A stretch of DNA of 64,000 nt from Fibrobacterales bacterium (GTDB taxonomy: Bacteria > Fibrobacterota > Fibrobacteria > Fibrobacterales > JAOPTW01). Shown here one piece after another: positions 544 to 38,870 of this stretch (the first letter of the stretch is position 1; every line of letters starts with the position of its first letter). Where the stretch lies: the NCBI GenBank assembly GCA_051532055.1, contig JAOPTX010000042.1, positions 111,101 through 175,100 of the forward strand. The letters are read 5' to 3'. The position numbers and the translations under genes are program-made. The notes under the pieces are model-generated. The model worked only from the letters and a program-made list of their open reading frames with translations. It did not search any database and had not been told where the DNA came from.

Positions 544-3500
544 GTGCCGTATAAAGCAGTTCTGTTATTATTTCTATTTTGTTCTATACTCAAGGCAGAC
601 CAGACTTGGTTACAAACTGATTGGTCCGGTGGCTCTGGTCAAAATGAGTGGATAGTAATAAATCAATACTTAAGTGATGACTCTCAGTTACATACTGATG
701 ATGTGGGTGAGCTCGGTATAACGTTTAGTGTTCAAAACGGTGATGGTTCAGATGGTAATGTCACTATTTCAACGGTCAATCAGATAGTTAATACTTATTC
801 TGCAATTTCATCAACGAACACAGCCGCAGCTCAAAAACAAGTTGTAGTTCAAGATGGATCTCTATTTAGTGTTGGTGACGAAGTACTTCTCATCCAAATG
901 CAACAATATACTAATGATAATTCGAGTACTGCGGGCACTTATGAATTTGCTCATATATCATCTATTAGTACTAACACCTTAACATTCGTAATTAATTTAT
1001 CCTATGCCTATTACTCGGGAAACTTTGATATGGCACAGGCTAACGCAGCTCAAGTTATCCGTGTCCCTAATTATAATAACCTCACGATAAGTACCGCTGC
1101 ATCCATTACGGGGAGCCCATGGAATGGTACCACTGGCGGAGTAGTTGCCTTTAGAGTTAAAGAGAATTTTATCGCTTCTGGTGCTACGGTCACGGCAGAT
1201 ACTCTCGGTTTTCGCGGTGGGGCGGGTGGGGCGGGGAATGAAGCAAAAGGCTGGGAGGGCGAAGGAATACTCGGGAAAGATATGGCTGAAGGTGATGGTG
1301 ATGGCTGTAACCCTTGTAATAGTTATCCCACTGGGATTAACAATGGTGGGTCTGGAGGGTTTGGGAGATCAATTTATGGTGGTGGAGGTGCCGGTGGTGG
1401 ACACGCGGTTGCAGGTCAAAATGGGGGAGCTAAATATATTGATCAACTCGCACGGGGAGGAATTGCTGTGGGGAATGCTGCGATGACCACTATATTTATG
1501 GGTGGTGGCGGCGGCGGCGGCGGTGACGACGACAATCAACATAATAACATGGTTGACCCGAGCAACGATAGATACTTTTATCATATGTATGGTGGTCGCG
1601 GTGGCGGCATCATCATGATATATGCAAAAACAATGACGGGTGGAACGTTAACAACCAAAGGACAATCCCGTCAAACTCCTTGGGTAAGTAACGGAGCCGC
1701 CGAAGGGAGTGGTGGTGCCGGAGGAAGTATAAGAATACAAGCTAAAGATATCAGTAGTGTTACTCTTGATGTTTCTGGTGGTGATGGAGAAAATGACTAT
1801 GAACAGATTACCGCTGGCTGGGGTGGTGACGGTTCAAATGGGCGAATGCTTTTGGAGTATAGTAGTAAAACGAGTATTGTTAATCAGACGGGAATCAATG
1901 GGGCAAACCAATCAATTAGTGAAGCTACCTTAGGTGCTTATGAATCAGCAGAGGTCGTATCATCCATTTTAGATATGCAATCACTACCAGGAACTCTGTT
2001 TGGACCCATGAGTGCAAACTGGACAGCAACACTTAATGGTGGAGTAGTTAAAGTATATCTACGCACGGCGTTAACTGAAGGAGCTATACCGGGTAAAGCA
2101 TGGACTCAAATTGAAAAGAATGTGATTGTTGATTACTCTGGTGACATTGATTATAATGATAGGTATGTACAGTATCGCGCACTATTACAAGTCGGTACAG
2201 AGTCACCCGTTCTGAATGATATCACAATTACCCTTGGTGATGTTGTTACGCCTCCTACTACACCTGATTCACTTTTTATCTATGGCGATTCGCTTTTTAC
2301 TCCAGAAGATGAGATATTAAGTAGTGATAGTATCGGCTGGAATACTCCAACAGGGTTTCCTGTTAACGCATTAACCTATGAATTTGAAATAGCTTCAGAT
2401 GCTTCTAATTGGGTAGGGACAAGTCTATACAGTGAAAATATTGGAGCTGATACTCAGATTGATTTAGATACTATGTCTATTTCTTTTGTTGAAAATAGTC
2501 GGTATTTCTGGAGAGTGAGGGCTGTGCACCCTGATGCCTCAATGTCTTCATGGACAGGTGACCTACAATCATTTTATATTAATAATGTGAACAGTGCCCC
2601 ACATTCTAATACCCTCCATGAACCAACAGGGTACGAAATATTAAAAAGTACCGATACAATCACCTTTAGAGCTCTTGACGTCGATTCAATCAGTAATACA
2701 CCCGACATTTTAACTTACACTATCGATCTCAGTCTTAATAAATCATTCACCCTTATTGCAAGTTCATATAGCACAACAGATACCTTTGCAGTTATGGGTT
2801 CATTTGGGGTGTTAGTAAACGATCAACTCTATTTTATGAGAGTGCGCGTACAAGATGACGGGGGAGAATCTGGACCGACAATCACCCTATCAGACAGTAT
2901 ACGTTACCTTTTTGAAGGAAACACCCCTCCTCCGGTACCCTCATTTACTGGTGTTTCAGAAGATGATATGATAATAGAAACAGACGTGATTCAATGGAGC
3001 ACTTCTATAGATCCCGATGCAAACCCAGTACTTTATACTATAGAGGGGAGAAGTGATGTTAACGCTGCCGCAGTCTATTACAGCACTGGTATTTCAGCGA
3101 CTTCAGCAACGATTGCTCAACTCATTACTGCTGATTCTTTGGGCGCAACAATTGCTACCTTTAATGATAAGAATCTCTCACTCCGGATTAAAGCAACCGA
3201 TAGTTACAATGAATCGTCAAACTGGTCTGGTTGGATGCGCCTCCATTTTAACGCAGTCAATGACACTCCCTCAGTAGCTAGTATTACCGCTCCAACAGAT
3301 AATCAATTTTTCAGACCTCCACAATCAATAACATGGAACTCTTCATTTCATGGTGATCAGCGTGAAGATTCATATTTTAGTCTTGAACTGGGTAATGCAT
3401 CTGATTTTAATGTTATTATTGAATCGGATACTCTCGCTGAATCCGTGCACGATAAACAACTATCGACGTTCACAAAACTCGATCAGCTCATTGCAAATCA

Positions 3501-6500
3501 AGAGTATTATCTTCGCCTCAAGTCATATGATGCCTCAGGAAATAGTTTTGGTTATTCTCAAGTTAAATCATTTACCTATCTCATCGATTCACTTTTTGCA
3601 CCGGCTACACTCTACAGCTCCCCAGGAATATCATTTGTATCAGGTAACGAGTTTAGTGCAGAAAGTAGTGTAGGGTGGAGTTATTCTGGTGTATATTCCT
3701 ATGGTTTTTTAACCTATGAACTTATCATTGATAATGATGCTTCTTTTGGATCTCCAGAAGTACGCGATACTCTCACTGATACAACTGCTGTATTTACAAG
3801 TCTCACAGGGAACGCCTCTCTCGTCGATAATCAATTTTATTATTGGATCGTTAAAGAAATTCATCCAGATGGTACAAGCTCTAACTATACCGACCCAACC
3901 TCATCATTTTTTTATAATCCTATTAATCAAGCACCAACATTACCAACGAATATATCACCCTTACCATTAAACAATTTAGAACTGTATGTCACCTCTGACT
4001 CACTCTTTAGGTTTTATTCAACTGACGCTGATTCCCTCGGTAATACACCCGACCTTTATAGCTATACTATTCAAGTTTCTACTGATTCTCTTTTTGCTCA
4101 AATCATTTCTACAATACCTGGTGTTTTAGAAGATAGTTATGTAATTGGAAGTGTCCCCGGTCTCCAAGATAGCACTGAATATTTTTGGCGGGTTTTTACG
4201 ACCGATAGTCATGGAGCGTCATCAGATACCGCAGGAACATTCTCTTTTACGTATCTCATGACAAACACCCCACCTTCAGTGGTTCAATTTATTACACTCC
4301 CTGATAGTACCATTGTTGACTCTACCACGTTATTTAAATGGAATCGCTCCTTTGACCCAGAAGGTTCATCAATCCGATATTTCGTGGAGTTTACTCAAGA
4401 CACTACCCGTTTTAGTTTTAATATAATATCCGAAGTGACTGATACTACATACACTTATAGTGAATTGATCACTTTTAATACCATTAAAAAAGTACTAACC
4501 ACAGACACCCTCGATAATGATGTTTATATAGATACAACAACGTCACTGAGTTTTGACGATCAAACCCTCTATCTACGTATTTATTCAATTGATCAATTTA
4601 ACATTAGATCTATAGCCTCTTCATGGACCACGCTCTTTATTGATAGTGAAAATGACACCCCTACTCAAATACAGTTAAAACAACCTCTTGATGACTCTAT
4701 AGATCTTTTTGAAACACAACTAATTACGTATACACAATCAACCGATCCTGATCGATTTGATACACTTTATTACGAAGTAGAGATTTCTAAAACCGTTGAC
4801 TTCTCTACTTTAATGGGGAGCGCTACAACGGCCAAAGGCGATACTGCAATTGGATTTACCGAGTTTACCTTGACTGAACAGTTCGCAAATGGCGACTACT
4901 ATTATGTACGGGTACGGGGACGAGACAATGCTGGGAATAGCGCGGGGTATACGAACCCTCGGCCATTTAAATATTCAGCTAATAATTCTCGGCCTACCAC
5001 TCCTGTAATCACTACACCTGCCGACACTGCAAACACATTTGGTCCTACTGGTCTTATTACATGGAGTACAGCGACCGACCCCGAAGGTGACTTGGTAACC
5101 TATGAGCTGGTAATTGTACCGAGTGATTCTTCCTTTCCTGCCATATTAGAGAACGGATTGAGTTTTGCAACAAGCATAACAAATACTACTTATACATTGT
5201 ATAAGAGCACACACTACGAACATCTTCAAAGCGGAACCCTTTATGCCGCCTACGTACGATCAGTTGATGCTTTTAATGCACCATCAAGTCCATCCGAACC
5301 ACGATACTTTTGGTATTTCTCAACAAAACCAGGAGCGGTTACCCTTCACTCACCTGTCGATTCTACAGAAGGGGATGGTACACTCAGACTCACGTGGAGT
5401 CGCGCTGTAGACACCGATGCAGGTGTAAACGACACAATACGGTATGATATCCTTCTTTCCCAATCTCCTAATTATTCAGACACAGCCTTAAGAGTTAGTG
5501 TAGTTGGAGATACTTCGGCTGCCCTTCAGGATTTACCAGGGATGAATGATTTAGTTGAAGATCGCTATTATTACTGGAAGGTCTTTGCTGTAGATCCTCA
5601 TGGTGAAGTGAGTGAATCAAGTCTTACCAAACTATTCTTTTATAATCTCGGTAATCAGAAACCTAATGTCCCTGATAGCCTTCGCTATTTAAAAAGTGAC
5701 TCCCTCTTTCTTTTTGATGAACTCTTTTGGTGGGCAACTGACCCTGACATTAGCGATAATGGCAAGCTTGTCTATGACCTACAAATTGATGATTCAGATG
5801 TATTTCAATCCCCAATACAGTTTAGCAATATACCACAAGAGTTTGTTGCGCTCAACTATAACGCAGAAACCTTACAACTTCAAAAAAACCACGAATACTT
5901 TTGGAAAGTTCGAGCTCGTGACCCAGCTGGGGAGACGTCGGCCTATACAGCCACACTAATGTCATTTGTTTATATGGGTTTTGATAGTACCATGTTTGAC
6001 ATTTCTACAATATATACTCCATCACGTAGTGTCTTTGTACATACGGATTCGCTCTTTTGGAAACCAGTTACTCATTTAAATAGTAAATATATTGTACGCC
6101 TCTATGATGGATCCACAGGAGGCCTTATCGGTGTTGACACCATATATGCCTCTGAACTAAGTACCTACCGTTATAATGACTCCAGCATGTATATCCCATT
6201 ACTGGCAGTATTGCCTGATTCTCTATATACAGCAGAGAAGTTCTTTAATTGGAGTGTTCAAGCAGCTTCAGATACTCATGACCCTACTTATGGAACAGTA
6301 GTTTCTCATTATTTTTATTTAGGCAAAAAGGAGAAGCTTCAAGATAACAATAGAACCAGTGCATGGATTCTCCCTAAAGATAGTGTCATTCTCTATTCAG
6401 CCGATTCGCTTCTTAACGTTTCCATTCCACAGCATTCATTTAAGGATACATTTGGTGTGGCTTTTGATAGCGTAGGCCTCTTTTTACAAGAACTCCTTCT

Positions 6501-7302
6501 CGATACGTCATCTCAATACACTACCGAAACTAATTATCTCATTGGAAAAATAAACCGAGCCAATCGACATCTTGCTGCAGATCGTGGAATTAAATATGTT
6601 GGTCAGAAAATATTTGAGATTCATGCGGTTGATTTGGTCTCTCAAAAAATAATTCAACCGGATAGTTCCATTAATCTGGTGTTATCAATGCAAGTATCGG
6701 AACAAGATACTAGTGGTGGACGGAGGCTACCAAGGGATTCTCTCTTTACTTATTCTGACACACTCTATGATGTCAATGAGACCTCTATATTTTTGCTCGA
6801 TGAGATAGAAGACCGTTGGGTGATGCAAGAGAGTGAGCTCATAAACAATACAACCCTTAATGATAGTACATCTATATTGGCAAAACGAGCAGAGGTGAAC
6901 CCCCAGTCAATCATTGCTACCACAACGAATCATTTTAGTGTGTATACAATATTAGCAGCTAAAGTGAGTCTCGAACCCTTTAGTGACTTTCTTATCTACC
7001 CATCACCAATCATTACCTCAGATGTCACTGAAGAAAACAGAAATGCCCGTATTAGTTTTCGTATCACACAACCCACTGATATTGCCATTCGGATTTTTTC
7101 TAGAACGGGTAAGCTCGTATGGAAGCAAGACTTATCGGAAGTAATACCAGAAGATGGTACTAAAAATGAAGTCATTTGGAACTGTACCAATCTTGATGAA
7201 TATCTAGTAGGGAATGGTTACTATATCGTAAAACTAAAAGCAACCATTAAAGCGACCGGTAAAAAATATATAGAGAAACAAATTATAGCGGTGGTAAAAT
7301 AA
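544..7302 (+). CDS. Giant secreted surface protein: signal peptide, Gly-rich head, about a dozen FN3/Ig-like repeats, ZU5-like domain (NHFS), FlgD-Ig/T9SS-like C-terminal domain
   Basis: N-terminal signal peptide; WLQTDWSGG start; GGxGG-rich region; repeated W...DP...Y...YYWRV.A.D modules; C-terminal FLIYPSP...IFSRTGKLVW...W...N...GNGYYIVK. Confidence 0.8.
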   Translation: MPYKAVLLLFLFCSILKADQTWLQTDWSGGSGQNEWIVINQYLSDDSQLHTDDVGELGITFSVQNGDGSDGNVTISTVNQIVNTYSAISSTNTAAAQKQVVVQDGSLFSVGDEVLLIQMQQYTNDNSSTAGTYEFAHISSISTNTLTFVINLSYAYYSGNFDMAQANAAQVIRVPNYNNLTISTAASITGSPWNGTTGGVVAFRVKENFIASGATVTADTLGFRGGAGGAGNEAKGWEGEGILGKDMAEGDGDGCNPCNSYPTGINNGGSGGFGRSIYGGGGAGGGHAVAGQNGGAKYIDQLARGGIAVGNAAMTTIFMGGGGGGGGDDDNQHNNMVDPSNDRYFYHMYGGRGGGIIMIYAKTMTGGTLTTKGQSRQTPWVSNGAAEGSGGAGGSIRIQAKDISSVTLDVSGGDGENDYEQITAGWGGDGSNGRMLLEYSSKTSIVNQTGINGANQSISEATLGAYESAEVVSSILDMQSLPGTLFGPMSANWTATLNGGVVKVYLRTALTEGAIPGKAWTQIEKNVIVDYSGDIDYNDRYVQYRALLQVGTESPVLNDITITLGDVVTPPTTPDSLFIYGDSLFTPEDEILSSDSIGWNTPTGFPVNALTYEFEIASDASNWVGTSLYSENIGADTQIDLDTMSISFVENSRYFWRVRAVHPDASMSSWTGDLQSFYINNVNSAPHSNTLHEPTGYEILKSTDTITFRALDVDSISNTPDILTYTIDLSLNKSFTLIASSYSTTDTFAVMGSFGVLVNDQLYFMRVRVQDDGGESGPTITLSDSIRYLFEGNTPPPVPSFTGVSEDDMIIETDVIQWSTSIDPDANPVLYTIEGRSDVNAAAVYYSTGISATSATIAQLITADSLGATIATFNDKNLSLRIKATDSYNESSNWSGWMRLHFNAVNDTPSVASITAPTDNQFFRPPQSITWNSSFHGDQREDSYFSLELGNASDFNVIIESDTLAESVHDKQLSTFTKLDQLIANQEYYLRLKSYDASGNSFGYSQVKSFTYLIDSLFAPATLYSSPGISFVSGNEFSAESSVGWSYSGVYSYGFLTYELIIDNDASFGSPEVRDTLTDTTAVFTSLTGNASLVDNQFYYWIVKEIHPDGTSSNYTDPTSSFFYNPINQAPTLPTNISPLPLNNLELYVTSDSLFRFYSTDADSLGNTPDLYSYTIQVSTDSLFAQIISTIPGVLEDSYVIGSVPGLQDSTEYFWRVFTTDSHGASSDTAGTFSFTYLMTNTPPSVVQFITLPDSTIVDSTTLFKWNRSFDPEGSSIRYFVEFTQDTTRFSFNIISEVTDTTYTYSELITFNTIKKVLTTDTLDNDVYIDTTTSLSFDDQTLYLRIYSIDQFNIRSIASSWTTLFIDSENDTPTQIQLKQPLDDSIDLFETQLITYTQSTDPDRFDTLYYEVEISKTVDFSTLMGSATTAKGDTAIGFTEFTLTEQFANGDYYYVRVRGRDNAGNSAGYTNPRPFKYSANNSRPTTPVITTPADTANTFGPTGLITWSTATDPEGDLVTYELVIVPSDSSFPAILENGLSFATSITNTTYTLYKSTHYEHLQSGTLYAAYVRSVDAFNAPSSPSEPRYFWYFSTKPGAVTLHSPVDSTEGDGTLRLTWSRAVDTDAGVNDTIRYDILLSQSPNYSDTALRVSVVGDTSAALQDLPGMNDLVEDRYYYWKVFAVDPHGEVSESSLTKLFFYNLGNQKPNVPDSLRYLKSDSLFLFDELFWWATDPDISDNGKLVYDLQIDDSDVFQSPIQFSNIPQEFVALNYNAETLQLQKNHEYFWKVRARDPAGETSAYTATLMSFVYMGFDSTMFDISTIYTPSRSVFVHTDSLFWKPVTHLNSKYIVRLYDGSTGGLIGVDTIYASELSTYRYNDSSMYIPLLAVLPDSLYTAEKFFNWSVQAASDTHDPTYGTVVSHYFYLGKKEKLQDNNRTSAWILPKDSVILYSADSLLNVSIPQHSFKDTFGVAFDSVGLFLQELLLDTSSQYTTETNYLIGKINRANRHLAADRGIKYVGQKIFEIHAVDLVSQKIIQPDSSINLVLSMQVSEQDTSGGRRLPRDSLFTYSDTLYDVNETSIFLLDEIEDRWVMQESELINNTTLNDSTSILAKRAEVNPQSIIATTTNHFSVYTILAAKVSLEPFSDFLIYPSPIITSDVTEENRNARISFRITQPTDIAIRIFSRTGKLVWKQDLSEVIPEDGTKNEVIWNCTNLDEYLVGNGYYIVKLKATIKATGKKYIEKQIIAVVK

Positions 7303-8954
7303 TGGTACGATTATACGCCATACTCCTATCTTATTTAGTTTCTATGTCGACAATTAAGGCCGCTAATCTAGAGCCATTTAATCCCATTAATCTCACGACA
7401 GGAAATCAAGATACTCTACTCTTCTTTTTTGAAGCACTGACCTGGGAGGGCAGTGACCCCGATTCATTAGATACACTATTATCCTATCGGATTCAAATTG
7501 ATGACGACAGTAATTTTGCATCACCAGTACTCCAACTGGATACTACTGCATCATCAGTTTTTATTAGTGATTTTAATAACTATTCACAAAAACTTACAAA
7601 TGAAACAACGTACTACTGGAGGGTTCGAGCTAAAGACTCCGACGGGCTGCTATCGGATTATTCCGTAGCCAGTCTGGGTTATAACTTTGTTAATGGCGTC
7701 AACATGCTTGACATCCCTTCAGTAGTTTCGTTTTCACATACAATTAAAGAGCCTACCGACTCTCTTTTTTGGCAATCAGCACTCTATTATGATGCAGAAT
7801 ATACTGTAGAACTCTTTAGAGATGATAGTTCGGTCATTCAAAGCAGAACATTAATTCCCTCAACCAATGATTCTTCTATGTTCATTGGTTCTAACATGTT
7901 TATATCTATTAGTCACCTTTTTGGTGATAGTACCATAGAACCTTTTACGAGTTATTTCTGGACTATACAAGCTTTTGCGAACAACTTGGGCTCATTATCG
8001 GGAATACGTTCTGAGAGGCAACATCTATTTATACACGATAGCACGAATCAGTTGATCACTGCAGCAACAACCCATGCGTGGTCTATTTCTCATAAAGATC
8101 AAGAGATTTTTTCAGCTGACTCACTCATGGTTATCACTATTCCTGACTCAGCATTTGGGGAGACTACTGTTACGGTACTCATCAGTGAACTTCCTGGTGA
8201 GAGTGTTACCGACAGTAGTTCTAGTACAGGAGCCCATAATAACATTGTGTCAGCTCAAAATAATCTTACCGCAGATCGGTTTAGACGTACACTGGGACAA
8301 AAAATTTATGCTATTGATGCTTTGAATAGCAGAACTATGAATCCAATAGCACCTCTCAAAGGTAAAGAAGTCATACTGTCCCAAGCCATTATCCTTAATG
8401 ACACTACATTAACCTCTAATACTCCCATTGAAAGTGCAACGATAGCACAGCTTGATACAACAAGAAATGAGTGGGCCGTTCAATCTTCATCATTGATTTC
8501 TATACAAAGCCAAGAATCTCTTGATTTTTTCAAGTCACACTCTGACCAGCAGTTAACGCATTACATGCAACACACCACCAATCACTTTAGCTATTATACC
8601 ATCCTGTTTCGAGGAGTGGATAGCGAGCCATTTTCCGATTTTTTAGTCTATCCATCACCTATTATTCTCAGTCATGGAACTGATGAAATAAAGAACGCTC
8701 ATATATCATATAGCCTGACAGCAGAGACCTCGATTTCCATAAATATATTCTCGAGAACCGGTAAATTAGTGTGGTCAAAAGACACCATTCATATCGCACC
8801 AACTGATGGCCTTAAAAGTGAAATAGTTTGGAATGGCACTAATAGTGAAGGTACTGTAGTAGGTAATGGTTATTATGTGGTAAAATTGGCAGCAAAAATT
8901 AAAGGTATCGACCGTTACTATAGGGCCAAACAATTAATAGCGGTGGTAAAATAG
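7302..8954 (+). CDS. Short paralogue: signal peptide, two FN3-like modules, ZU5-like domain (NHFS), FlgD-Ig/T9SS-like CTD
   Basis: Overlaps the upstream stop (TAATG); colinear with the last ~550 aa of the two giant proteins; same YPSP/SRTGKLVW/GNGYY/QLIAVVK C-terminus. Confidence 0.8.
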   Translation: MVRLYAILLSYLVSMSTIKAANLEPFNPINLTTGNQDTLLFFFEALTWEGSDPDSLDTLLSYRIQIDDDSNFASPVLQLDTTASSVFISDFNNYSQKLTNETTYYWRVRAKDSDGLLSDYSVASLGYNFVNGVNMLDIPSVVSFSHTIKEPTDSLFWQSALYYDAEYTVELFRDDSSVIQSRTLIPSTNDSSMFIGSNMFISISHLFGDSTIEPFTSYFWTIQAFANNLGSLSGIRSERQHLFIHDSTNQLITAATTHAWSISHKDQEIFSADSLMVITIPDSAFGETTVTVLISELPGESVTDSSSSTGAHNNIVSAQNNLTADRFRRTLGQKIYAIDALNSRTMNPIAPLKGKEVILSQAIILNDTTLTSNTPIESATIAQLDTTRNEWAVQSSSLISIQSQESLDFFKSHSDQQLTHYMQHTTNHFSYYTILFRGVDSEPFSDFLVYPSPIILSHGTDEIKNAHISYSLTAETSISINIFSRTGKLVWSKDTIHIAPTDGLKSEIVWNGTNSEGTVVGNGYYVVKLAAKIKGIDRYYRAKQLIAVVK

Positions 8955-8955
8955 T

Positions 8956-11900: not shown

Positions 11901-14900
11901 TATAACGCCGCCATTACCACTCTCGCTCGGCATGGACTCTCTCTTTGCTTCTGGTAATGAACGAATGAAATCAGATACTCTTGCATGGAGTTGGTCTCGG
12001 GTGTATTCCTATGGCTATCTCGAATACACTCTTCAAATCAGTAGTGACTCACTGTTTACTACACCTCTTATTTCTCTTACTAATTATAGTGATACCTCTG
12101 TGATTATCCAAAATTTACCGAACGTTACTGCTCTCACTGAAAATAAACGTTATTTCTGGAGAGTAAAAGAAATTATTCCTGCAGGTGCTTATTCTGAGTA
12201 TACTGATGTCAGTAATTTCTTTGTACTCAATACTACCAACGATAAACCGCTCACCATATCCTCTTTTTCACCTTCAGTATCAGCCGGTGAACCACCTTTT
12301 TTAACGTCAGACTCTTTACTGAAGTTTATAACAGTTGATCCTGACACGTTAGGTATAACCCCTGACAAACTATCGTATACCATTCAAATTTCACAGAACT
12401 CAGGGTTTACTCCTGTACTCACCACCATCTCAGGTGTTACTGAAAATGAATATCTCTTAGGAAGTATTCCTGAACTCCAAGATACACAAATATACTATTG
12501 GAGAGTTTTTGCTACAGATAATCATGGACTTCGTTCTGACACTACAATTGGTACCCACTATTTTGAGTACTCATTGACTAATGCCGCTCCCAGTAGTGTG
12601 TTTTTTAAAAACCTTCCAGATAGTGCAGAACGCGGAGGTTCAGATCTCCTAGAATGGAATAAATCAATTGACCCTGATGCGCATACGGTGTCCTATGTCA
12701 TTGAGGGGGTTAGTGACACTATCGTTTTTACCCGTGAACTCTACACAATAGTTCCTGACACCTCTCTCACCCTCGATTCTGTATTATCACATAACACTCT
12801 TTCTGTAACTGATTATGATGATAAAATATACTTTGTAAGAATTTACAGTAGAGATCAGTACAATGCTCGCTCCGTACCCTCAGCATGGCAAACTCTTTTT
12901 ATAAACTTAGAAAATGATATACCCACTGCTGTTTCTCTCAAAAAACCTCTTGATGACTCATCTGCAATTGCTGAATCTGAAGGAATTGTGTTTAGCAAGT
13001 CCAAGCATTCAGATCACTTAGAGAGTTTCATCTATATCCTTGAAATTGCCGAAGATACAAGCTTTACTCAACTAATTTCAGTTGATACCCTTTCTTCGAC
13101 TGAAGACTCTCTTGGTTTTTATGATATGAATGGCTCACTATCTCTCGAAAAAGATATTTTCTACCACGTACGAGTTCGCCCCATTGACCGAGCAGGAAAT
13201 GCCCCAGAATGGTCAGCCCCTAAGAGTTTTCAATATATCACCTCAAATGGACGGCCCGGAATTCCCGAACTTATTTCTCCCATTGACACCGTAAAATATT
13301 TTTTACCGCGAGACACCCTATACTGGGGAGGTGTAACAGATGGTGATGGTGATGCTTTTTGGTACGAAGTGTATATCGTGAATATTGATGAACAACCAAC
13401 AAATAAAACTCAAAAAAGTATTGCCTTTAAAACGGGTGTTGATACCACACAGCTCGCTCTCAATGCTCTCGTTAACTACCGTAACCTACAAAGCCATACC
13501 AAATATCGCTGGATTGTTCAGGCTAAAGACATCTACAATGCACCTTCAGGCTATGCAACTGAAGGTATCTTTACCTTTAGATCTACTCGACCCGATGATG
13601 CAGTTATCATAGCCCCAAAGGATTCAGCGGTCGCTAACTTGAGTAATCCCTTTTATTGGCATCCTGCCCACGACGTTGATTTAGGTGTAGATGATGAACT
13701 TCTCTATGAGCTCCTCATTTCGAAATCAGAATCCTTTGATACTAAGGATATTGTTTTACAAGACACAATAATTTCTGATACGCTTGTTGCACTCACCGAC
13801 CTCCCCTCATTTTCAAATGTTCCTGATGACCAATGGTACTATTGGAAGGTATATACCATTGATCGCCATGGACTGAGAAGTGAAGGTGGTATTGCAGAGC
13901 CCTTTTTCTTTAATTTGGGTAATCAAGCACCTACTGCGCCTGTTGATTTAACCATGGGGGACGGAGATTCTCTTTTCTATGCATTTGAAGAACTAAAATG
14001 GACAGGTAGTGACCCTGATCCTCAAGATATTCCCTATCTCGTCTATGATATACAGATTGATGATAGCCATACTTTTGCTTCACCCGACTTTATTCGCTAC
14101 GGGGTAACAGGGGAAACCAATGTTGCACTCAATACCTTTAGTGGGCATCTCAGAATGATACCAGGGCACCGTTATTATTGGCGTGTTATCGCACAAGATT
14201 CCGAAGGGCTCCTCTCACCATTTTCTGATGATAGCACTGCAAGCTTTGTATTTATGCCTTCAGATAGTTCATTGTTTGAGATACCAAATGTTCGTACAAT
14301 CAATAGTTCGGTGCTCACTTCTTTTGATACTCTAGAATGGCATCAACCACTTTTTGATGATGTTTCATACCGTGCACGTATATATTCCCTCAGCGGCGAT
14401 ACACTCAATACGATTGTTTTTAAGGGAGGCGTGGATTCTATTTCTAAAATTGCGCTATCTTCATTACTCCCAGACACCCTCTATCAGGATGAGCACTACT
14501 ATTTTTGGGATATTATTGCCTTTAGCAATACAACACAACCAGAATACGGCCCACTGAAAGAAAATCTTTATTTTTATACAGGAAATCGCTTTAAATCACA
14601 GAATATTTCTGCTACTCGAGCATGGCTCACAGGGCCAGATTCAACTCTGATTCAAAGCGCTGATTCTCTTTTTACAATAGTAATACCGAATAATGCATTT
14701 ACTGACACCGTTGGTATTGTTATGCAAACAGTGCCCAAAGATACATCCGCTATTATTGATAGTACGACCAAGGCATTAGTATCACTTGTTACCTATGCCA
14801 ACAAGGCACTCGCTTCAAATCGTAAACTCTTTCCTTTAGGACAAAAAGTCTTTAGTGTCGAAGCGCATGATCTGGCAACTGATACCGTTGTACAACCCGA

Positions 14901-15552
14901 TAGCACCAGTCAATTGTTATTACATCTCGCCTACGAAAACCGAGATTCTACGGATAGCAGTGTCGTTCAATTTAGTGATTCACTTTTTAGTATCTATAAT
15001 ACTGCTGTATTTTGGCTTGATGAGACTAAAAAAAGGTGGGTTGAGCAACAATCAGTAGTACAACCAGATCTAACGATTGAACAACCAACAATACTTCCTA
15101 AGAAGAGTTTAACTTCAACATCTTCGAATAAAGAAAATGAACGGGCGCCTCACAACCAATTTAATGCTCTAACCTATTCAAACCACTTTTCAGTCTATAC
15201 TATTTTTGCAGTTAAGCGATCTATAGAACCATTTGGTGATTTTCTCATATATCCTTCCCCCATAATAACATCAAGTGAAAACCCCGATAAACAAAAGGCC
15301 CGAATAAGTTTCTCTATTACCGATAAAACATCGATAAACCTTCGAATTTACTCCAGAACTGGCAAATTAGTCTGGAAATATGATAGAATAGAAGAGCCAG
15401 TAGATGGGTTAAAGAATGAAATCATATGGGATTGCAAAAATTTGGATGACTACCTTGTTGGGAATGGATACTACATCGTTAAGATACGTGCTAAATCGGA
15501 AGCAAATAATAAGGTCTACATACAAAAGCAGTTAATTGCAGTGATAAAATAA
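8956..15552 (+). CDS. Giant secreted surface protein, full-length paralogue of 544..7302
   Basis: WTQTDWSGGSGQ N-terminus, Gly-rich head, FN3-like repeats colinear with 544..7302 (shared SFHxDQRED, VYSYGxLxY), NHFSVYT and the same CTD. Confidence 0.8.
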   Translation: MNRVFSTSCLMRNLFIGLFVGFYGPLTAANTHWTQTDWSGGSGQNIWSNSTQYGSDDGLIKTSITNQLSIENSINTGTGTIDLIVSLDSTVINEYSAVIGSPSAGSFTIDVSNGSLFQNGSEILIHQTQHADSAGNYEFHTVVSKVGNTLNLDSGLIHTYYSGTDNVTVSSTAQVVSVPHYNSVTINNGVTMESREWDGVTGGIVIFRTKETVTLNGYIDVDGQGFRGGNCGTCGDAAWGTQGEGHTGIGGNSVVANGSGGGGGYGPSGIGGEPGAGGGHAFAGSSPASYGAPSQPIGGVAVGDPQLSKILFGGGAGAGGDNDNGTPFPQYVNGGGIVILFAKTIVDARITSKGEDGVFSSGAGGVTGGGAGGAILLSAKTITTQSVDASGGAATPGSSPDIGGAGSVGRIRIDVETCTGCTTTPTPVENIIAVADSAVLLSSIYAFNNSDYYGPYRINWEFTDNGGSVDVWIRTASTTGSIPGEPWVPVIKNARTDFNTGFSNSDAYVQYKVTLTKGSADSPIFEEINIELGEKQTPLTAPVRLYLGNDVLFTSEDVRSPGDNLSWSQDTTFPSNFLSYELFISPNANYSTILYQGNVGGDTLVSLDTLTLSSALQDNTPYYWAVRSKDVDNVVSTYTSLGNRFIYNSINQPPPIPAIYTNSGIALTATQPLYFKSQDPDSLGNQPDQLTYRIELDTDPAFGSIDVTHTTQDTTPLTGSIAGLVNATNYFWRVWTEDDSSAVSSKTTGTHWFTYIHSNSPPSAISLTLFIDDTEFFGDSLIRWNKSIDPEGNPITYIIEGRHNTFGDTLLYATILSDTALTLNQLIDSNDITTAVSEFNDRDFVIRVKARDSYQLESIVSDWKPVHFNQINDVPSAVTITTPLDSLKLRPPEKIRYSASFHSDQREDIFYEVELGADPHFIASLSKDTVPEDSTSVPLQNLGGHSTLTINNFYYLRVAAFDANGNKASSSPVRTFQYSIDSITPPLPLSLGMDSLFASGNERMKSDTLAWSWSRVYSYGYLEYTLQISSDSLFTTPLISLTNYSDTSVIIQNLPNVTALTENKRYFWRVKEIIPAGAYSEYTDVSNFFVLNTTNDKPLTISSFSPSVSAGEPPFLTSDSLLKFITVDPDTLGITPDKLSYTIQISQNSGFTPVLTTISGVTENEYLLGSIPELQDTQIYYWRVFATDNHGLRSDTTIGTHYFEYSLTNAAPSSVFFKNLPDSAERGGSDLLEWNKSIDPDAHTVSYVIEGVSDTIVFTRELYTIVPDTSLTLDSVLSHNTLSVTDYDDKIYFVRIYSRDQYNARSVPSAWQTLFINLENDIPTAVSLKKPLDDSSAIAESEGIVFSKSKHSDHLESFIYILEIAEDTSFTQLISVDTLSSTEDSLGFYDMNGSLSLEKDIFYHVRVRPIDRAGNAPEWSAPKSFQYITSNGRPGIPELISPIDTVKYFLPRDTLYWGGVTDGDGDAFWYEVYIVNIDEQPTNKTQKSIAFKTGVDTTQLALNALVNYRNLQSHTKYRWIVQAKDIYNAPSGYATEGIFTFRSTRPDDAVIIAPKDSAVANLSNPFYWHPAHDVDLGVDDELLYELLISKSESFDTKDIVLQDTIISDTLVALTDLPSFSNVPDDQWYYWKVYTIDRHGLRSEGGIAEPFFFNLGNQAPTAPVDLTMGDGDSLFYAFEELKWTGSDPDPQDIPYLVYDIQIDDSHTFASPDFIRYGVTGETNVALNTFSGHLRMIPGHRYYWRVIAQDSEGLLSPFSDDSTASFVFMPSDSSLFEIPNVRTINSSVLTSFDTLEWHQPLFDDVSYRARIYSLSGDTLNTIVFKGGVDSISKIALSSLLPDTLYQDEHYYFWDIIAFSNTTQPEYGPLKENLYFYTGNRFKSQNISATRAWLTGPDSTLIQSADSLFTIVIPNNAFTDTVGIVMQTVPKDTSAIIDSTTKALVSLVTYANKALASNRKLFPLGQKVFSVEAHDLATDTVVQPDSTSQLLLHLAYENRDSTDSSVVQFSDSLFSIYNTAVFWLDETKKRWVEQQSVVQPDLTIEQPTILPKKSLTSTSSNKENERAPHNQFNALTYSNHFSVYTIFAVKRSIEPFGDFLIYPSPIITSSENPDKQKARISFSITDKTSINLRIYSRTGKLVWKYDRIEEPVDGLKNEIIWDCKNLDDYLVGNGYYIVKIRAKSEANNKVYIQKQLIAVIK

Positions 15553-15566
15553 GAGATAGGTAAACT

Positions 15567-17861
15567 ATGCATACTCATAGAGCAAGAGCACTTTTCACAC
15601 TTCTCATAAGTGTTGGAATACTTTATTCAGCAGGTGATCCTGGTGATTACACATTCGAACTAGCTCCTGACGCTGCATCCCAGGGACGTGGCGGTGGTAG
15701 TGCTGCCGAAATTAATGCTGAAGCACTCTATCACAATCCCGCAGGTCTCAGCTTTAACATTTATAACAGTGTAACCATTGGACGTCAAGTACGTGAGTCA
15801 TTTGATCTTACAACATTCTCCTATATACATCCTTTTACCAATGCTGGAGTGGTGGGTATTGCTTTCTATAATGATGCACTCTCTTCGGTGCATAATCAAT
15901 ATTCTGAATTTGGTGAACATATTGGTTCTGATCAGGGCGGAGAAAGGGAGGTAGTCATTGGGTATGGTTATAACTTTTTAGATATGATTGGGGTAGGCTT
16001 AAATTTTAAAATGGCTCATCAAGAGGTAGCTTCGTATACCGACATGGGGTTTGGCTTTGACTTGGGTTTGTTGTATAATTATCAACGAACGTTTATGGCG
16101 GGCGTGAGTCTCGTAAATTTATTTGGTCCTGAAATGCAGCTGGTCAATGTCAGTGAATCATATGCAACAGTCTTAAAGACTGCTGTTGCAAGTCACCTTT
16201 TAAACGAAATATTAGTAATGAGTGCGGATGTCGATATTGTAAATATTCTTGGGGGAGAGGATCCACTGGGTAATGAACTGAAACGCTCGAGTAGGTATCG
16301 CCTTGGAGTCGCTTTTTCTCCTATTAAATATGGTACAATACGTACAGGAGTGAATGGGGTTAATGTGGTTCGAGGTATTACTGATGATGTATGGTACTCT
16401 GTTGGAGCAGGTCTTACCGTCAATAACTTTTCGGTTGATTATGCTTTTTCAACCTCGTTACTTTCAGACGATGCAGAAATAGGCATGGGTTCCAATCACT
16501 ATGTGAGCCTCAATTACCTTATAGGAAAACCCTATGAAAAAGAAAAAGAGGATCTCATCCAACGAGTAAAGGACCTTGAATCGCAAATTAGTCTCAATAA
16601 TGCCCGTCAATCATTTATTGACAAAGAGTATAAAGATGCCCTGAATCAAATTCAAGAATATCTAGTAGTATATCCAATGGACAGTAGTGCACTCGAGTTT
16701 AAATCAGAAATCAGAGGAGAGATCAATCGAGAACGTGTAGTTATTCTCGAGATAGAGTTTATTGAAACGATAAATAACAACCAGTTAATTAAAGCCAAAG
16801 CGATTATTGATGACATAGTACTTCTGAGCCCTCAGTATGAAAATTTGCCAGAATTACAAAAATCATTGGTCACCGCAGAACAAGTTGAAACATTATTTAC
16901 ATCAATTAAAAACTTAACTCCTGACAGTGAACCAGTAAAAATTATAGAAGGATTAGTTCGCATCTATGAATTAAATCCTGACTTTGCACAAGGAGCTTCT
17001 CTTGAGAAAACAGCGAGACCGTATTACAATCAATTAAAAGCCAAAGAACTATATACAACTGCAAGTAGCCTCTTTTACGAAAAGAAAGATGTACAAGCAG
17101 CTCATCAAAAGTTAAAAGAGGCATTAATTCTCGACAAAGATAATAGTGAAGCCAAAAAGCTGTATGAGGAACTTACGAGTAAATTAAGAGCCCAGTTGCT
17201 CAAACAGGCGGCATCTGGAGATGAAGATGCGGTGCTAGAACAAATGGTTGCTCTCGATTTAGATCAACAAATTATTGAAGCCAACAATCTCTTTGATGAT
17301 AAAGATTTTGAAAGTGCTGAAGTAGTGCTTAATAAAATTCTTCGTAAAAACAGTGCTCATCCTGGTGCAACGGTACTTTTGGAAAAGGTTAAAAAAGCAT
17401 CCTATACCCAAACAGCAAAAGCAAGCTACCAAGAAGCGCTCTTAGCCTTTAATAGTGGTGACATGAAAAAAGCATTTGCACTGGTATCCAAAACAATTGA
17501 GATCGATCCAATTCACACAAAAGCAATTGAACTTAAAGAAAATATGATTGCAACCACCCTAACTGATGCAAGAAATGCACTGGAATCCTTTAGAAAAAGT
17601 CAAGTAAATACAGACCTTAAACTCGCACGAGATCTCCTTGATGCGCTTATTGAAGGTGGCACTAGTACAGAAGAAATTACAGCCCTGCAACTCGGTGTTT
17701 CTACTGAAGAACGCGTTCTTTCTGTTCTTATACAAATAGAAAATGGTGAATATAAAAACGCCGAAAAAGAACTCAATGATATTTTACTCAGCAACCCTGA
17801 TAGTAAATCGGCAAAAAGTGCATTTGAAATGCTGAATGAACTTAAGGAGATTTTACAATGA
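15567..17861 (+). CDS. PorV/PorQ-family (FadL-like) outer-membrane beta-barrel fused to a C-terminal TPR-like helical region
   Basis: Signal peptide; DAASQGRGG...ALYHNPAGL motif of PorV/PorQ/FadL-like barrels; amphipathic strands (GFGFDLGLLY, VGAGL, VDYAF, YVSLNY); then ~430 aa of TPR-like helices. Confidence 0.7.
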   Translation: MHTHRARALFTLLISVGILYSAGDPGDYTFELAPDAASQGRGGGSAAEINAEALYHNPAGLSFNIYNSVTIGRQVRESFDLTTFSYIHPFTNAGVVGIAFYNDALSSVHNQYSEFGEHIGSDQGGEREVVIGYGYNFLDMIGVGLNFKMAHQEVASYTDMGFGFDLGLLYNYQRTFMAGVSLVNLFGPEMQLVNVSESYATVLKTAVASHLLNEILVMSADVDIVNILGGEDPLGNELKRSSRYRLGVAFSPIKYGTIRTGVNGVNVVRGITDDVWYSVGAGLTVNNFSVDYAFSTSLLSDDAEIGMGSNHYVSLNYLIGKPYEKEKEDLIQRVKDLESQISLNNARQSFIDKEYKDALNQIQEYLVVYPMDSSALEFKSEIRGEINRERVVILEIEFIETINNNQLIKAKAIIDDIVLLSPQYENLPELQKSLVTAEQVETLFTSIKNLTPDSEPVKIIEGLVRIYELNPDFAQGASLEKTARPYYNQLKAKELYTTASSLFYEKKDVQAAHQKLKEALILDKDNSEAKKLYEELTSKLRAQLLKQAASGDEDAVLEQMVALDLDQQIIEANNLFDDKDFESAEVVLNKILRKNSAHPGATVLLEKVKKASYTQTAKASYQEALLAFNSGDMKKAFALVSKTIEIDPIHTKAIELKENMIATTLTDARNALESFRKSQVNTDLKLARDLLDALIEGGTSTEEITALQLGVSTEERVLSVLIQIENGEYKNAEKELNDILLSNPDSKSAKSAFEMLNELKEILQ

Positions 17862-19126
17862 TCAAGTTACTCTCTATACTCATATGCGTGTGTTTACTCG
17901 TAGGTACAAGCCCTGCGCAAGACCAACAAAATCTAGAACAACTCTATACGAGAAAAGCCGTTAAAGCTTTTGTCTCCAAAGACTTTAACGCCTCTATAGA
18001 GAATGTTAAACAAGTTCTCAGAATTAACCCTAACAATAACCAAGCAAAAAAATTATTGGCTAAAGGGTATTACTTCCAGTCCAAACAACTCTTTGCTGCT
18101 AAAGAGTATTCATTGTGTGACGCAATGCTTGATGAGCTTTTTGTAATCAGTCCAAAACACCAGTTGGGCCTTTCACTACGAGCCAAAGTTAAGCCCCTAT
18201 TGATAGTTCAGCCTACAATGCAAGCGACACAAGAGCAAAGGGGCAGGTCACCTCAACAGATACAACAAATACCCAGTCAAATTATAGTTAAAACTGATGA
18301 TGGGGGTAAAAGTGAAAAGATGATCTCTGCTTTTTTAGCACAATCAGATATGCAACGAGAAATTCAAGCACGTAAAGACTCCCTTTCGCGTCTTCAAAAT
18401 ATTGAACTCATAAACCTTATGAAAGATAGAGATGCTGAAAGTTCAACGAAGTTCAATAAAACCTTCATTTGGGTCGCTATAATCATTATAGGAACTATTT
18501 TCATCATTATCGCGGTCGTGTTTTTACTTGCAAAAATGTTCATTAAAACATCAGAATTACAATCAGCGCAACAATATGAAGTATTACAAAATTTATTATC
18601 TCAAGGTCCAGTAATGAATGAGTCCACCCTCAAACTTACTGCTACTTCTGGTAGTACCGAAGCAGACCTTGATAATGATGATGATCTAAAACGTGCAAAT
18701 GCTGTTGAGGCCATAGCAGAGGATCTCGCTGGGTCCGAATCAGTCAGTGATGAACATAAAGAAAAAATTGAAAAAGTAAGACTTCTCCTAAGTGACAGCA
18801 ATAATAGGGTTAGGGCAAATGCGGCAAAAGTTATTTATGCCATTGATAGTGAAGCTTCACTAAATTGTCTCAAAGAAATGGTCTTTTCTACAAGTAAACG
18901 TCAAAGTGCCTCAGGAATTTGGGCTCTTGGTGAAATCCACTCCAAAGAAACACTGAGTATTATACTGGATAAAGTAGCTGAGAATGATGATGATGAAATT
19001 ATCACACATAATTTACTTAATGCACTAAAAAAGGTCGAGAGCGATGCAGGAGAAGAACTCGATGAAGACGACCGACTTACGATAGTTAAAACATTAGAAG
19101 TGTTGCAGAGTAAAGAGAATGGGTAA
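17858..19126 (+). CDS. Bitopic membrane protein: exported TPR domain, single TM helix, cytoplasmic HEAT repeats
   Basis: Signal peptide; TPR (VLRINPNNNQAKKLL); hydrophobic FIWVAIIIIGTIFIIIAVVFLLA; HEAT repeats (DSNNRVRANAAKVI, SGIWALGEI); ATGA overlap with upstream gene. Confidence 0.7.
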   Translation: MIKLLSILICVCLLVGTSPAQDQQNLEQLYTRKAVKAFVSKDFNASIENVKQVLRINPNNNQAKKLLAKGYYFQSKQLFAAKEYSLCDAMLDELFVISPKHQLGLSLRAKVKPLLIVQPTMQATQEQRGRSPQQIQQIPSQIIVKTDDGGKSEKMISAFLAQSDMQREIQARKDSLSRLQNIELINLMKDRDAESSTKFNKTFIWVAIIIIGTIFIIIAVVFLLAKMFIKTSELQSAQQYEVLQNLLSQGPVMNESTLKLTATSGSTEADLDNDDDLKRANAVEAIAEDLAGSESVSDEHKEKIEKVRLLLSDSNNRVRANAAKVIYAIDSEASLNCLKEMVFSTSKRQSASGIWALGEIHSKETLSIILDKVAENDDDEIITHNLLNALKKVESDAGEELDEDDRLTIVKTLEVLQSKENG

Positions 19127-20474
19127 AAATTTCTATGAATTACTGGGGGTGGAGTCAAAAGCTACAGAACCCGAGATAAAGCTTGCCTATCGAAAACTTG
19201 CTATTCAACTACATCCAGACAAAAACCCAGAAGGGAATACTAAAGAGGCATTTACTGAAGCGGCTCGAGCCTATGAAACATTATATAATCCAGTAACTCG
19301 TGCAGAGTATGATGATTCACTAAAAACGGGTTCTCATAGACCTTCAGCTGTATTCCGGGGTAATAAAGCAGGTGGCCCAGCATTTGATTTTGTTAATGCC
19401 CTTCGTCAATTCATGAATACTGTATCAGAAGGGTCTTATACAACTGAAAGCCAAGACCTTCTCAAAGGAAAAGATATCTCACTCAAGTTTGCAGTAACAC
19501 TTGAAGACATCTATTCCGGTGGTGACAAAACGATCAAACTCAATAGAAAGATGCACTGTAAATCGTGTGCTGGAAAAGGGTCAAATGGCGGGAGTGAAAT
19601 CACTTGTCAATATTGTGCAGGACACGGAAAAGTACTCGATCCCAATTCAAATTCTGCTGTGTTATGCCCAAACTGCCTAGGAACTAAAACACAATTTTCT
19701 GACCCTTGTATGGACTGTAAAGGCAAAGGCATTTCTGAAGCATCTGAAAAAATTACTTTCTCAATTCCAAAAGGAGTAAGTTCCGGAAATATGATTGAGA
19801 TTTTAGGTAAAGGACATTCAGGAGTTCGGAATGCTATTTCCGGTAACTTAGTGATAACCTTTATGGAATCTATTGATGAATCAATTCAGCGGAATAATGC
19901 AGATATTTACAGAAATGTAAATGTCGATATGTTTACTATGATTCTAGGAGGTAAGGCTTCATTCCCTCATATCACAGGAGAAGATATTGTCATTGATATT
20001 GTACCGCACTCACAGGTCGATACCTTAGTTCAATCTATAGGGTATGGATTGCCTTACTACAATGATATTAAAGTAGGTGACTGCTTTTGTAGACTCAAAC
20101 CACAATTACCTGAAAATCTCAACGATGATCAGATCGCTCTTTTTAAAGAGATCCAACAACACATCTCTATTCGCCATCTACCTGATAGTCATTCTGAAAA
20201 CGGATGTTTTATTATCATTCTTAAGCCACAAAATAATATGGTTGACCTGGCACAGGATGTTTTAACAGTGCTTGAACAACGCCCTGATGGGGAAGAAGTC
20301 GTCATTGATGTAACTAGTTTTGGAGACGATATATCAGACGTATTACTCTCATCATTCATTAAGGTTACTAAAAAGCTTCCTGAACAAGAAAAGCTCCTGT
20401 TGGCCGCAAGTGATGAAGTCGAAACTATTATTGAAGAGCTTGGTTTGGGTGACTTCTTAGAAGTCATGATGTAA
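19119..20474 (+). CDS. DnaJ-class chaperone (J domain, Zn finger, C-terminal domain) with an extra STAS-like domain
   Basis: HPD motif; four CxxCxG repeats (CKSCAG, CQYCAG, CPNCLG, CMDCKG); extra ~90 aa tail VVIDVTS...LLSSF...VETIIEELGLGDFL resembling STAS. Confidence 0.8.
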   Translation: MGKNFYELLGVESKATEPEIKLAYRKLAIQLHPDKNPEGNTKEAFTEAARAYETLYNPVTRAEYDDSLKTGSHRPSAVFRGNKAGGPAFDFVNALRQFMNTVSEGSYTTESQDLLKGKDISLKFAVTLEDIYSGGDKTIKLNRKMHCKSCAGKGSNGGSEITCQYCAGHGKVLDPNSNSAVLCPNCLGTKTQFSDPCMDCKGKGISEASEKITFSIPKGVSSGNMIEILGKGHSGVRNAISGNLVITFMESIDESIQRNNADIYRNVNVDMFTMILGGKASFPHITGEDIVIDIVPHSQVDTLVQSIGYGLPYYNDIKVGDCFCRLKPQLPENLNDDQIALFKEIQQHISIRHLPDSHSENGCFIIILKPQNNMVDLAQDVLTVLEQRPDGEEVVIDVTSFGDDISDVLLSSFIKVTKKLPEQEKLLLAASDEVETIIEELGLGDFLEVMM

Positions 20475-23322: not shown

Positions 23323-23471
23323 AAAGTGGCTAGATCAGTTCAGTATGATCATATTCTCCTAAACAGCCAAAATTTAACTTATTCCAAGAGGATGTGATTT
23401 AAAAAGGGGTATTAATTTTGTATTTTTGCACCTAAAGAATGATTTATTACCCTACCTCTCAGGAGACTTCT

Positions 23472-38626: not shown

Positions 38627-38812
38627 CTATTCTCCTTAGTATACCATCACAGTAGTATGTAATCTATTTAGTTGCGAGCAACTAATACTCGTTCACTCAT
38701 GGCGAACATAATAAACATAAAGGGCTGTTTTTTTACCTATGAGTTGATTTTTTTGAGGTTCGAGTCTCTCTGTTGTACCTTACATTGATGATTCATATAG
38801 GCTTTTTGATAC

Positions 38813-38845: not shown

Positions 38846-38870
38846 GTATATTTATAGGTATTGAGTCAAT

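Follow-up and report, generated by a model that had tools for sequence, protein, structure and literature searches.

A six-gene Fibrobacterales locus that looks like an undescribed surface-to-cytoplasm link

Introduction

Can a surface protein that a type IX secretion system (T9SS) exports be connected to the cytoplasm of the cell that displays it? The question is raised by a six-gene locus in a 64,000-nt stretch of DNA, hereafter the window, from a Fibrobacterales bacterium (assembly GCA_051532055.1, contig JAOPTX010000042.1, positions 111,101-175,100 of the forward strand), in which genes for three surface proteins (A, B and C) are followed by genes for an outer-membrane barrel with a periplasmic arm (D), an inner-membrane protein with a cytoplasmic domain (the adaptor E) and a fusion of DnaJ to a STAS domain (F). 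An initial annotation of the sequence had proposed a trans-envelope display or signalling system with a component for every compartment. That proposal is borne out in part: the six-gene set looks like an undescribed surface-to-cytoplasm link, its core now being the barrel and the adaptor, one subfamily of which stands without adjacent cargo genes, and a GAIN/ZU5-type domain has been added to the description of the cargo.

T9SS-type signals have been proposed earlier in Fibrobacter succinogenes (PMC6851124). In known systems, cognate carriers encoded immediately after their cargo retain and target that cargo, and PorE homologs anchor some of them to the wall (PMC12618676; 10.1101/2020.05.13.094771; PMC9143113). 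MAIN domains are cut between the F and the S of an H-F-S motif, after which the fragments stay together (Brogan and Rudner, 10.64898/2026.05.12.724683), and ZU5 domains have been noted before in large bacterial surface proteins (PMC3482391).

Results

The barrel and the adaptor form a core that recurs across phyla

The locus comprises six open reading frames (ORFs), all on the + strand.

544..7302, + strand: gene A, a 2252-aa surface protein with a putative signal peptide, an AgmC_N-like Gly-rich head, Ig/FN3-like repeats, a GAIN/ZU5-type domain and a T9SS C-terminal domain (CTD)
7302..8954, + strand: gene B, 550 aa, a short protein paralogous to the last quarter of A and C, with Ig-like domains, a GAIN/ZU5-type domain and a CTD
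8956..15552, + strand: gene C, a 2198-aa paralog of A with the same architecture
15567..17861, + strand: gene D, 764 aa, a PorV/PorQ-like outer-membrane barrel (aa ~25-321) with a ~440-aa periplasmic TPR arm
17858..19126, + strand: gene E, 422 aa, with a signal peptide, a TPR pair, a linker, a predicted coiled coil, a transmembrane (TM) segment at 198-234 and a cytoplasmic HEAT domain with an NNRVRANA motif
19119..20474, + strand: gene F, 451 aa, with a J domain bearing HPD, a zinc-finger region, DnaJ_C and a C-terminal STAS domain (aa ~348-451)

The adaptor agrees with its initial description as a TPR-TM-HEAT protein, including a HEAT_2 match above the cut-off. Within the D-E pair the HEAT part is the most conserved region (mean identity 43%, against 24-26%), and a cytoplasmic domain so conserved is more than a passive tether or anchor would need. 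A protein search with E returned nine further strong relatives, eight of which cover at least 88%; a search of the Atlas gave Myxococcota clusters at 0.89-0.90 together with generic HEAT clusters, which serve as leads only.

Synteny was counted over relatives of E with an E-value <1e-40 and near-full profile coverage, all fetched loci being pooled into a set of 43 distinct full-length E proteins that is neither a random nor an independent sample; HEAT-only proteins lacking the signal peptide and TM segment (Riflebacteria proteins of 438 aa, for example) were judged a different family and left out, and one genome, G253, counts in the denominators only. A PorV-like gene lies directly upstream, or one gene away, of 31 of the 43 E proteins. 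Eighteen of the 31 barrel loci (17 and the window) carry a CTD cargo gene before the barrel; 10 of the 31 barrel loci besides the window's are too short to show cargo. Among 296 Fibrobacterota genomes, full-length E occurs in four, belonging to four families, and all four keep the order cargo-barrel-E-DnaJ, one with a gene for a STAS-TM protein between barrel and E. The same order recurs in the metagenome loci L129 and L130, and a third (L128) reads E-DnaJ from the start of its contig. In a second phylum, E matches are present in 25 of 26 genomes, often several per genome. Two more E relatives and HFS-type cargo proteins are found on equal-sized contigs (59,778 and 212,276), an indirect association. 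A genome of the host's own genus (G238, 91% complete) lacks the module.

The initial annotation had counted a lack of synteny between the last genes and the cargo genes among the outcomes that would refute it; the order is kept in all four Fibrobacterota genomes and in a metagenome locus. The neighbourhood survey that it called for finds linkage of barrel-TPR and TPR-TM-HEAT genes across phyla, together with a linkage to DnaJ-STAS that is limited to 5 of 43 adaptors. These two counts indicate that barrel and adaptor constitute the cross-phylum core and that DnaJ-STAS is a lineage-specific output, one that the D-E pair does not need in order to work.

Two further observations concern the pair as a unit. 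D and E co-duplicate, in that paralogous pairs of two genomes (G315 and G316) each match the pair of the same type in the other genome. Barrel distances also track the distances of the periplasmic part of E (Spearman 0.64, reached in 0 of 2000 shuffles), a correlation in which kinship is uncontrolled.

A PorV-like barrel with a TPR arm

The family profile of D matches PorV (6H3I_F) with an E-value of 8.5e-13 over its first 217 positions, and TPR matches are found in its tail. Both parts of the PorV-TPR assignment made at the outset are retained on this evidence, with a score against the PorV/PorQ family model NF033709 (E 4.7e-14, 52.7 bits) that does not reach the cut-off of 90. D lacks a PorP model match, and none of the six locus genes has an OmpA_C match. 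By sequence and gene order, and by analogy with known carriers, D appears to be a dedicated barrel that probably holds A, B and C.

The last repeat of the arm is kept in aligned barrel-TPR relatives; in short relatives, both the first TPRs behind the barrel and the last one are present, and Fibrobacterota forms insert ~300 aa between them. At several loci (L256:5222-7825, L259-L262 and L093) the adaptor is preceded by a secreted TPR-only protein carrying the terminal TPR of the barrels, with a coiled-coil gene before it. The presence of this repeat in TPR-only proteins suggests that the terminal TPR may be the adaptor-binding unit.

Other arrangements were seen around such pairs. Barrel-TPR and adaptor genes stand without adjacent cargo at L059:7651-10387, L089, L102 and L114; downstream of these cargo-less pairs lie conserved genes that we labelled by eye as PHP phosphoesterase-like (~290 aa), CBS-like (~160 aa) and transporter-like (~390 aa). 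At L052:7934-9103, the PorV-like barrel before the adaptor has a short LysM-like tail (by eye) and no TPR arm. The host genome contains ten PorV-family matches in nine genes, D included, and other PorV-like genes of 750-973 aa carry extra domains (C21:52643-54895, C32:168460-171381 and C1:13628-15880); as far as these sequences tell, barrel fusions are common in this genome.

The cargo proteins combine a separate CTD subtype with a GAIN/ZU5-type domain

The C-terminal features of the three cargo proteins are as follows.

14593..15219, + strand: GAIN/ZU5-fold domain of C (aa 1880-2088), from an AlphaFold2 model; its HFS (15184-15192) sits in the turn preceding the last strand
6931..6939, + strand: H-F-S of A (H2130-F2131-S2132), by alignment to the modelled domain of C; cleavage between F and S predicted
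8583..8591, + strand: H-F-S of B (H428-F429-S430)
15220..15549, + strand: T9SS-type CTD of C, by model and structural match; equivalents at ~6970-7299 (A) and ~8622-8951 (B)

A and C are 36% identical over their full length, and B aligns with their last ~550 aa at 34%. The N-termini of A to C are basic-hydrophobic by eye; a 19-residue hydropathy scan flagged none of A to D. The Gly-rich head of A spans aa 66-449 (27% Gly in 220-450), and AgmC_N-like matches to NF047640 fall under the cut-off in both A (E 1.4e-42) and C (E 3.6e-27); the head has no Pfam or PDB sequence match, and its Atlas matches are all <0.9.

We modelled residues 1880-2198 of C with AlphaFold2 from a 39-sequence alignment (mean pLDDT 84). 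Foldseek searches with this two-domain model were swamped by multi-Ig proteins; VIA-align told the domains apart. For the CTD (model residues 211-319) the best match is the PorU CTD (6za2; Z 12.6, root-mean-square deviation (rmsd) 2.5, 98 aligned), followed by the CTDs of PorZ (5m11, Z 10.8) and mirolase (Z 9.7). CHU_C, Por_Secre_tail and FlgD_ig match the same region weakly, under cut-off, and the models for type A (TIGR04183/PF18962) and type B (PF13585) CTDs give 21.8 and 24.8 bits against cut-offs of 27; A, B and C are absent from the 20 TIGR04183 matches of the host genome. A profile of the three CTDs matches only A, B and C in that genome, and with a wider CTD profile the three score far above all its other proteins. 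By these sequence comparisons, the CTDs of A, B and C represent a separate CTD subtype. They share the ending Q(I/L)IAV(V/I)K, as first described, and are less alike than the "near-identical" of that description, with pairwise identities of 57, 65 and 54% over the last 105 aa.

The initial annotation overlooked the domain that immediately precedes the CTD in all three proteins. This domain has no Pfam match in C; structural comparison of model residues 1-209 returns the GAIN domain of CD97 (9mqr; Z 10.2, rmsd 3.3, 138 aligned), the ZU5 domain of ankyrin (3f59, Z 9.9), the GAIN domain of BAI3 (4dlo, Z 9.5), Gpr126 (9.4), CELSR1 (9.1) and CARD8 (8.8). The Z values are middling, yet six GAIN/ZU5/FIIND entries span the same domain. 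The HFS occupies model positions 198-200, between strands 189-196 and 201-207; it is intact in A, B and C and lies 122-123 residues from the C-terminus of each. The model indicates a GAIN-B-like/ZU5 fold with an H-x-S/T motif, as in MAIN domains, and by that analogy A, B and C are predicted to cleave themselves between F and S.

Across the DnaJ-STAS loci, HFS is kept in 6 of 7 cargo proteins. The domain and a CTD occur in one stretch in 45 of the best 150 representatives (the 45 include A, B and C), 23 of them with H-x-S/T. Within the 296 genomes, this cargo type is matched at E<1e-100 only in the four that encode E, the next best match being 1e-19, with a profile built from the module loci.

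Two side observations bear on the cargo. The three cargo proteins have ~2 sequons of the form D-(S/T)-(A/I/L/M/T/V), the Bacteroidota O-glycosylation motif, per 100 aa; the figures for D, E and F are 0, 0.24 and 0.44. A richness of this kind makes heavy glycosylation of the three proteins likely. Outside the window, C42:85292-88249 (+) encodes a protein of 985 aa that is possibly another self-cleaving surface protein, with an HFS-type motif 247 aa before its C-terminus.

F fuses a divergent DnaJ to a STAS domain

The DnaJ-STAS fusion first described holds up, the J-protein parts being recognised by domain matches and the STAS domain by orthologs, profile and model. The zinc finger has three exact CxxCxGxG repeats and a fourth that reads CPNCLGTK. 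Unlike housekeeping DnaJ copies, the fusions have largely lost the G/F-rich linker and carry a P/A/S/T-rich stretch instead. In a tree of 16 rows, nine housekeeping DnaJs group together (support 96/92), apart from seven fusions with long branches. On sequence grounds F is a second, fast-evolving DnaJ paralog besides the housekeeping one, with HPD and client-binding domains kept.

STAS domains are typically regulatory interaction modules. F itself has no Pfam match to STAS, which passes in 4 of 5 orthologs tested; the family profile matches TM1442 (E 3e-13) and SpoIIAA. A model of the tail, built on an alignment of STAS orthologs, superposes on anti-sigma-factor antagonists with a TM-score of 0.71, and its top 10 Foldseek rows are all STAS (TM-score 0.58-0.73, E ~1e-3). 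At the position that is presumably the phospho-acceptor serine of those antagonists, 5 of 7 aligned fusions have Ser, F has Asp407 (with Ser406 beside it) and the fusion of G089 has Glu.

Among the matches listed for the 296 genomes, a DnaJ match running into STAS is found only in the four module genomes, again with a profile built from module loci; a homolog search with the double-STAS region found two proteins only. Genes for GrpE and a STAS-TM protein adjoin DnaJ-STAS in L129 and, convergently, in G072; in G294, GrpE lies beside DnaJ-STAS and the STAS-TM gene before E.

The host encodes the T9SS translocon

The six genes had been called self-contained, which is overstated: export requires SprA, a protein of 2319 aa, over cut-off, whose gene lies on a different contig, C32, of the host genome (5.17 Mb, 94% complete). 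Besides SprA, the initial annotation had named porKLMN and porU as genes to look for. A PorU-like sortase is present below cut-off, and neither GldL, GldM, GldN nor GldK was found over cut-off in this genome, a search made without a positive control. SprA is encoded by 118 of 121 Fibrobacterota genomes, and SprA-like genes, under cut-off, by all five genomes tested outside the phylum. We also considered the module as a general substitute for the T9SS motor; the spread of SprA (118/121) against that of E (4/296) led us to reject this.

Operon structure and neighbouring genes

The ORF coordinates reproduce the six same-strand genes and five tight junctions originally noted: TAATG at 7298-7302 (A/B), gaps of 1 nt (B/C) and 14 nt (C/D), ATGA at 17858 (D/E) and an 8-nt overlap at 19119 (E/F). 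In the host genome 889 of 2213 same-strand neighbour pairs (40%) have a gap of at most 15 nt. Five tight junctions in a row would have a probability of ~1% if independent, which suggests, rather than proves, an operon with a single transcript. A 133-nt gap upstream and a convergent gene downstream delimit the block.

One metatranscriptome run contained 10% of the locus words, and 10 short RNA contigs (at least 99% alike) fall across A, B, C, D and F; none of the eight listed bridges a junction. Scans for promoters (57 against 59.3 expected) and terminators (9 against 12.5) were at chance, with one candidate site at 483-512, unproven. Rfam gave no match in window positions 1-24000.

The surroundings of the block are as follows.

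20507-22741, - strand: convergent gene, 744 aa; thrombospondin type 3 repeats at the C-terminus and a weak likeness to myxobacterial TraB/MtsC; in relatives it was not seen next to the module
23439-24359, + strand: Hsp33 (HslO) gene, 3 kb after DnaJ-STAS; not seen at related loci, probably there by chance
37451-45487, - strand: polysaccharide cluster with an alginate lyase, a 1587-aa GH5 protein with FN3 and CBM domains and a laminin-G lectin
52769-53947, - strand: 392-aa protein with two matches to Hcp, the tube protein of type VI secretion, no other gene of which was recognised among the window ORFs scanned

Discussion

Taken together, the locus can be read as a cargo-specific display-and-reporting module plugged into the T9SS translocon of its host, a reading that we regard as evenly poised between right and wrong. 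The interactions, the cleavage and the direction of information in the following scheme are those that we infer from the genes, domains, folds, motif and synteny described above. Sec would take A, B and C across the inner membrane, and SprA would take them, by way of their CTD, across the outer one; the modelled CTD fold and the presence of SprA speak for this. D would then collect the CTD and keep it bound, as gene order suggests and as type B cargo is kept on its cognate PorP/SprF. By analogy with MAIN domains, the observed fold and motif would allow self-cutting at F|S, leaving the ectodomain held non-covalently on a ~121-aa stub (the last strand and the CTD), from which it could be shed under force. 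The periplasmic TPR arm of D may bind the TPRs of E, linking barrel and inner membrane, as the cross-phylum gene pairing suggests, and the HEAT domain of E might report to a partner in the cytoplasm what state the barrel or cargo is in. For Fibrobacterota, the partner could be the STAS domain of DnaJ-STAS, through which DnaK would be recruited either to the complex or to a regulatory client; this is the weakest step.

Several observations weigh against this scheme. DnaJ-STAS lies downstream of only 5 of the 43 E proteins, 12 of the 43 lack an upstream barrel gene (several having a TPR-only gene instead), and one D-E subfamily has no adjacent cargo. No conserved sigma factor, kinase or other regulator is found in the module loci. 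The genes for GrpE and a STAS-TM protein found in relatives are missing from the window locus, as they are from that of G089, and the host genome yielded no second GrpE. The PorU-like sortase of the host (346 bits against a cut-off of 420) could take off the CTD and anchor the cargo, with no role for D. The catalytic HFS motif is lost in the G072 cargo and in 22 of the 45 domain-plus-CTD representatives. Outside Fibrobacterota, the same holds for most cargo encoded next to D-E pairs, and several of these lack the domain altogether; losses this frequent indicate that shedding is optional to the module.

The display-and-reporting module shares features with several known systems. Like SprB-SprF and PG1035-PorP-PorE (PMC12618676; PMC9143113; 10.1101/2020.05.13.094771), it places the gene for an adhesin-like cargo before that for its own carrier barrel and has a periplasm-side partner, and by this analogy retention on the barrel is probable. 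It differs from the type B systems in a CTD of the PorU/PorZ/type A fold, a PorV-like barrel with a TPR arm, a DnaJ-STAS gene that follows and a host outside Bacteroidota; its partner, unlike the peptidoglycan-binding lipoprotein PorE, lies in the inner membrane and has a cytoplasmic HEAT domain. Compared with PorV (Flavobacterium johnsoniae, 6H3I chain F) and PorQ, D has a 440-aa TPR extension and is apparently cargo-specific rather than a general shuttle. F shares the J domain with HPD, the zinc-finger region and DnaJ_C with class A DnaJ, from which it differs in its replaced linker, and the STAS fold with SpoIIAA and TM1442, from which it differs in the fusion to DnaJ.

MAIN proteins and A, B and C have in common a GAIN-B-like fold with HFS placed in the turn, and adhesion domains that are followed by the cleavage domain and then by a surface anchor, in A, B and C behind a putative signal peptide; the proteins described here are anchored by a T9SS CTD on an outer-membrane barrel. 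The preprint describes MAIN proteins as tethered rather than signalling, and its main text mentions neither T9SS, type IX, PorV nor FlgD, its supplementary tables being a place where CTD-bearing members may be listed (10.64898/2026.05.12.724683). According to the same source, adhesion G-protein-coupled receptors (GPCRs) and RsgI/SEAL anti-sigma factors have an ectodomain that has cleaved itself and is kept in place by a beta strand, upstream of a module crossing the membrane; force sensing is a possible likeness. In contrast to these, the module has no seven-transmembrane or anti-sigma domain, spans two membranes with separate proteins and would have a J protein as its output. In literature searches that left most subscription journals uncovered, we found no description of a PorV-TPR/TPR-TM-HEAT pair, of a DnaJ-STAS fusion or of a GAIN/ZU5 domain joined to a T9SS CTD.

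A bolder form of the display-and-reporting reading, which we offer tentatively and think rather unlikely, would see in the locus the diderm bacterial equivalent of an adhesion GPCR, assembled out of T9SS components. Engagement or shearing of a GAIN-cleaved giant adhesin on its PorV-TPR barrel would be relayed through the TPR-TPR link and the HEAT adaptor to a STAS-gated J protein that switches DnaK onto a specific client, and the barrel-adaptor pair would serve in several uncultured phyla as a general wire across the envelope, its cargo and outputs being exchangeable.

The locus might instead be a biogenesis kit: D would serve as the dedicated carrier, and E would hold DnaJ-STAS, together with GrpE and DnaK, at the inner membrane, so that cargo of 2,200-3,400 aa stays export-competent and is passed along, no signal going inward. 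We consider this doubtful, if a serious contender. DnaJ-STAS does accompany the largest cargo (2198-3375 aa), loci without it having mostly cargo of 600-1050 aa; F retains HPD and its client-binding domains; and a GrpE gene is adjacent in 3 of the 5 DnaJ-STAS loci with flanks. Yet the conserved HEAT domain would go unexplained in the 38 of 43 loci without DnaJ, a STAS domain is typically a regulatory module, and the genome encodes other CTD proteins of >2000 aa beside which no helpers are known, their neighbourhoods not having been checked.

Alternatively, cargo, D and E could be the equivalent of type B cargo, PorP and PorE, statically anchored in the inner membrane in place of the cell wall, with DnaJ-STAS a co-transferred neighbour that does a separate job. 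T9SS operons of cargo, cognate barrel and anchor protein are known (PMC12618676; PMC9143113), and most loci consist of the core trio without DnaJ. A highly conserved cytoplasmic domain would, however, be superfluous for an anchor, and among the matches listed DnaJ-STAS occurs only next to E, in four families, the fusions standing apart from housekeeping DnaJ; we judge this explanation distinctly improbable.

Very unlikely, finally, is an energising role in which, without a recognisable GldLM motor, DnaK recruited by F would pull on E and so extract the D-cargo complex from SprA through the TPR arm: a J protein, GrpE and a membrane tether do recall the mitochondrial import motor, but SprA is present in 118 of 121 genomes and E in 4 of 296, so that their T9SS must be powered otherwise, and most D-E loci lack DnaJ. 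In favour of such a role, GldL/M/N/K were not found over cut-off (no positive control), and extraction of carrier plus substrate from SprA is an energy-requiring step (PMC10994853).

Known T9SS carriers act as shuttles or wall anchors, and known MAIN domains serve for release on proteins that are anchored to the wall. The locus described here brings the two together with a conserved adaptor that sits in the inner membrane and has a cytoplasmic domain, and it bears on the T9SS-like systems of phyla that have SprA and no recognisable GldLM motor. If the proposed links hold, no TonB-type receptor is needed for a T9SS cargo to report to the cytoplasm, an output of signalling would be an Hsp70 co-chaperone, and force sensing of the GAIN type may extend to signalling in Gram-negative bacteria.

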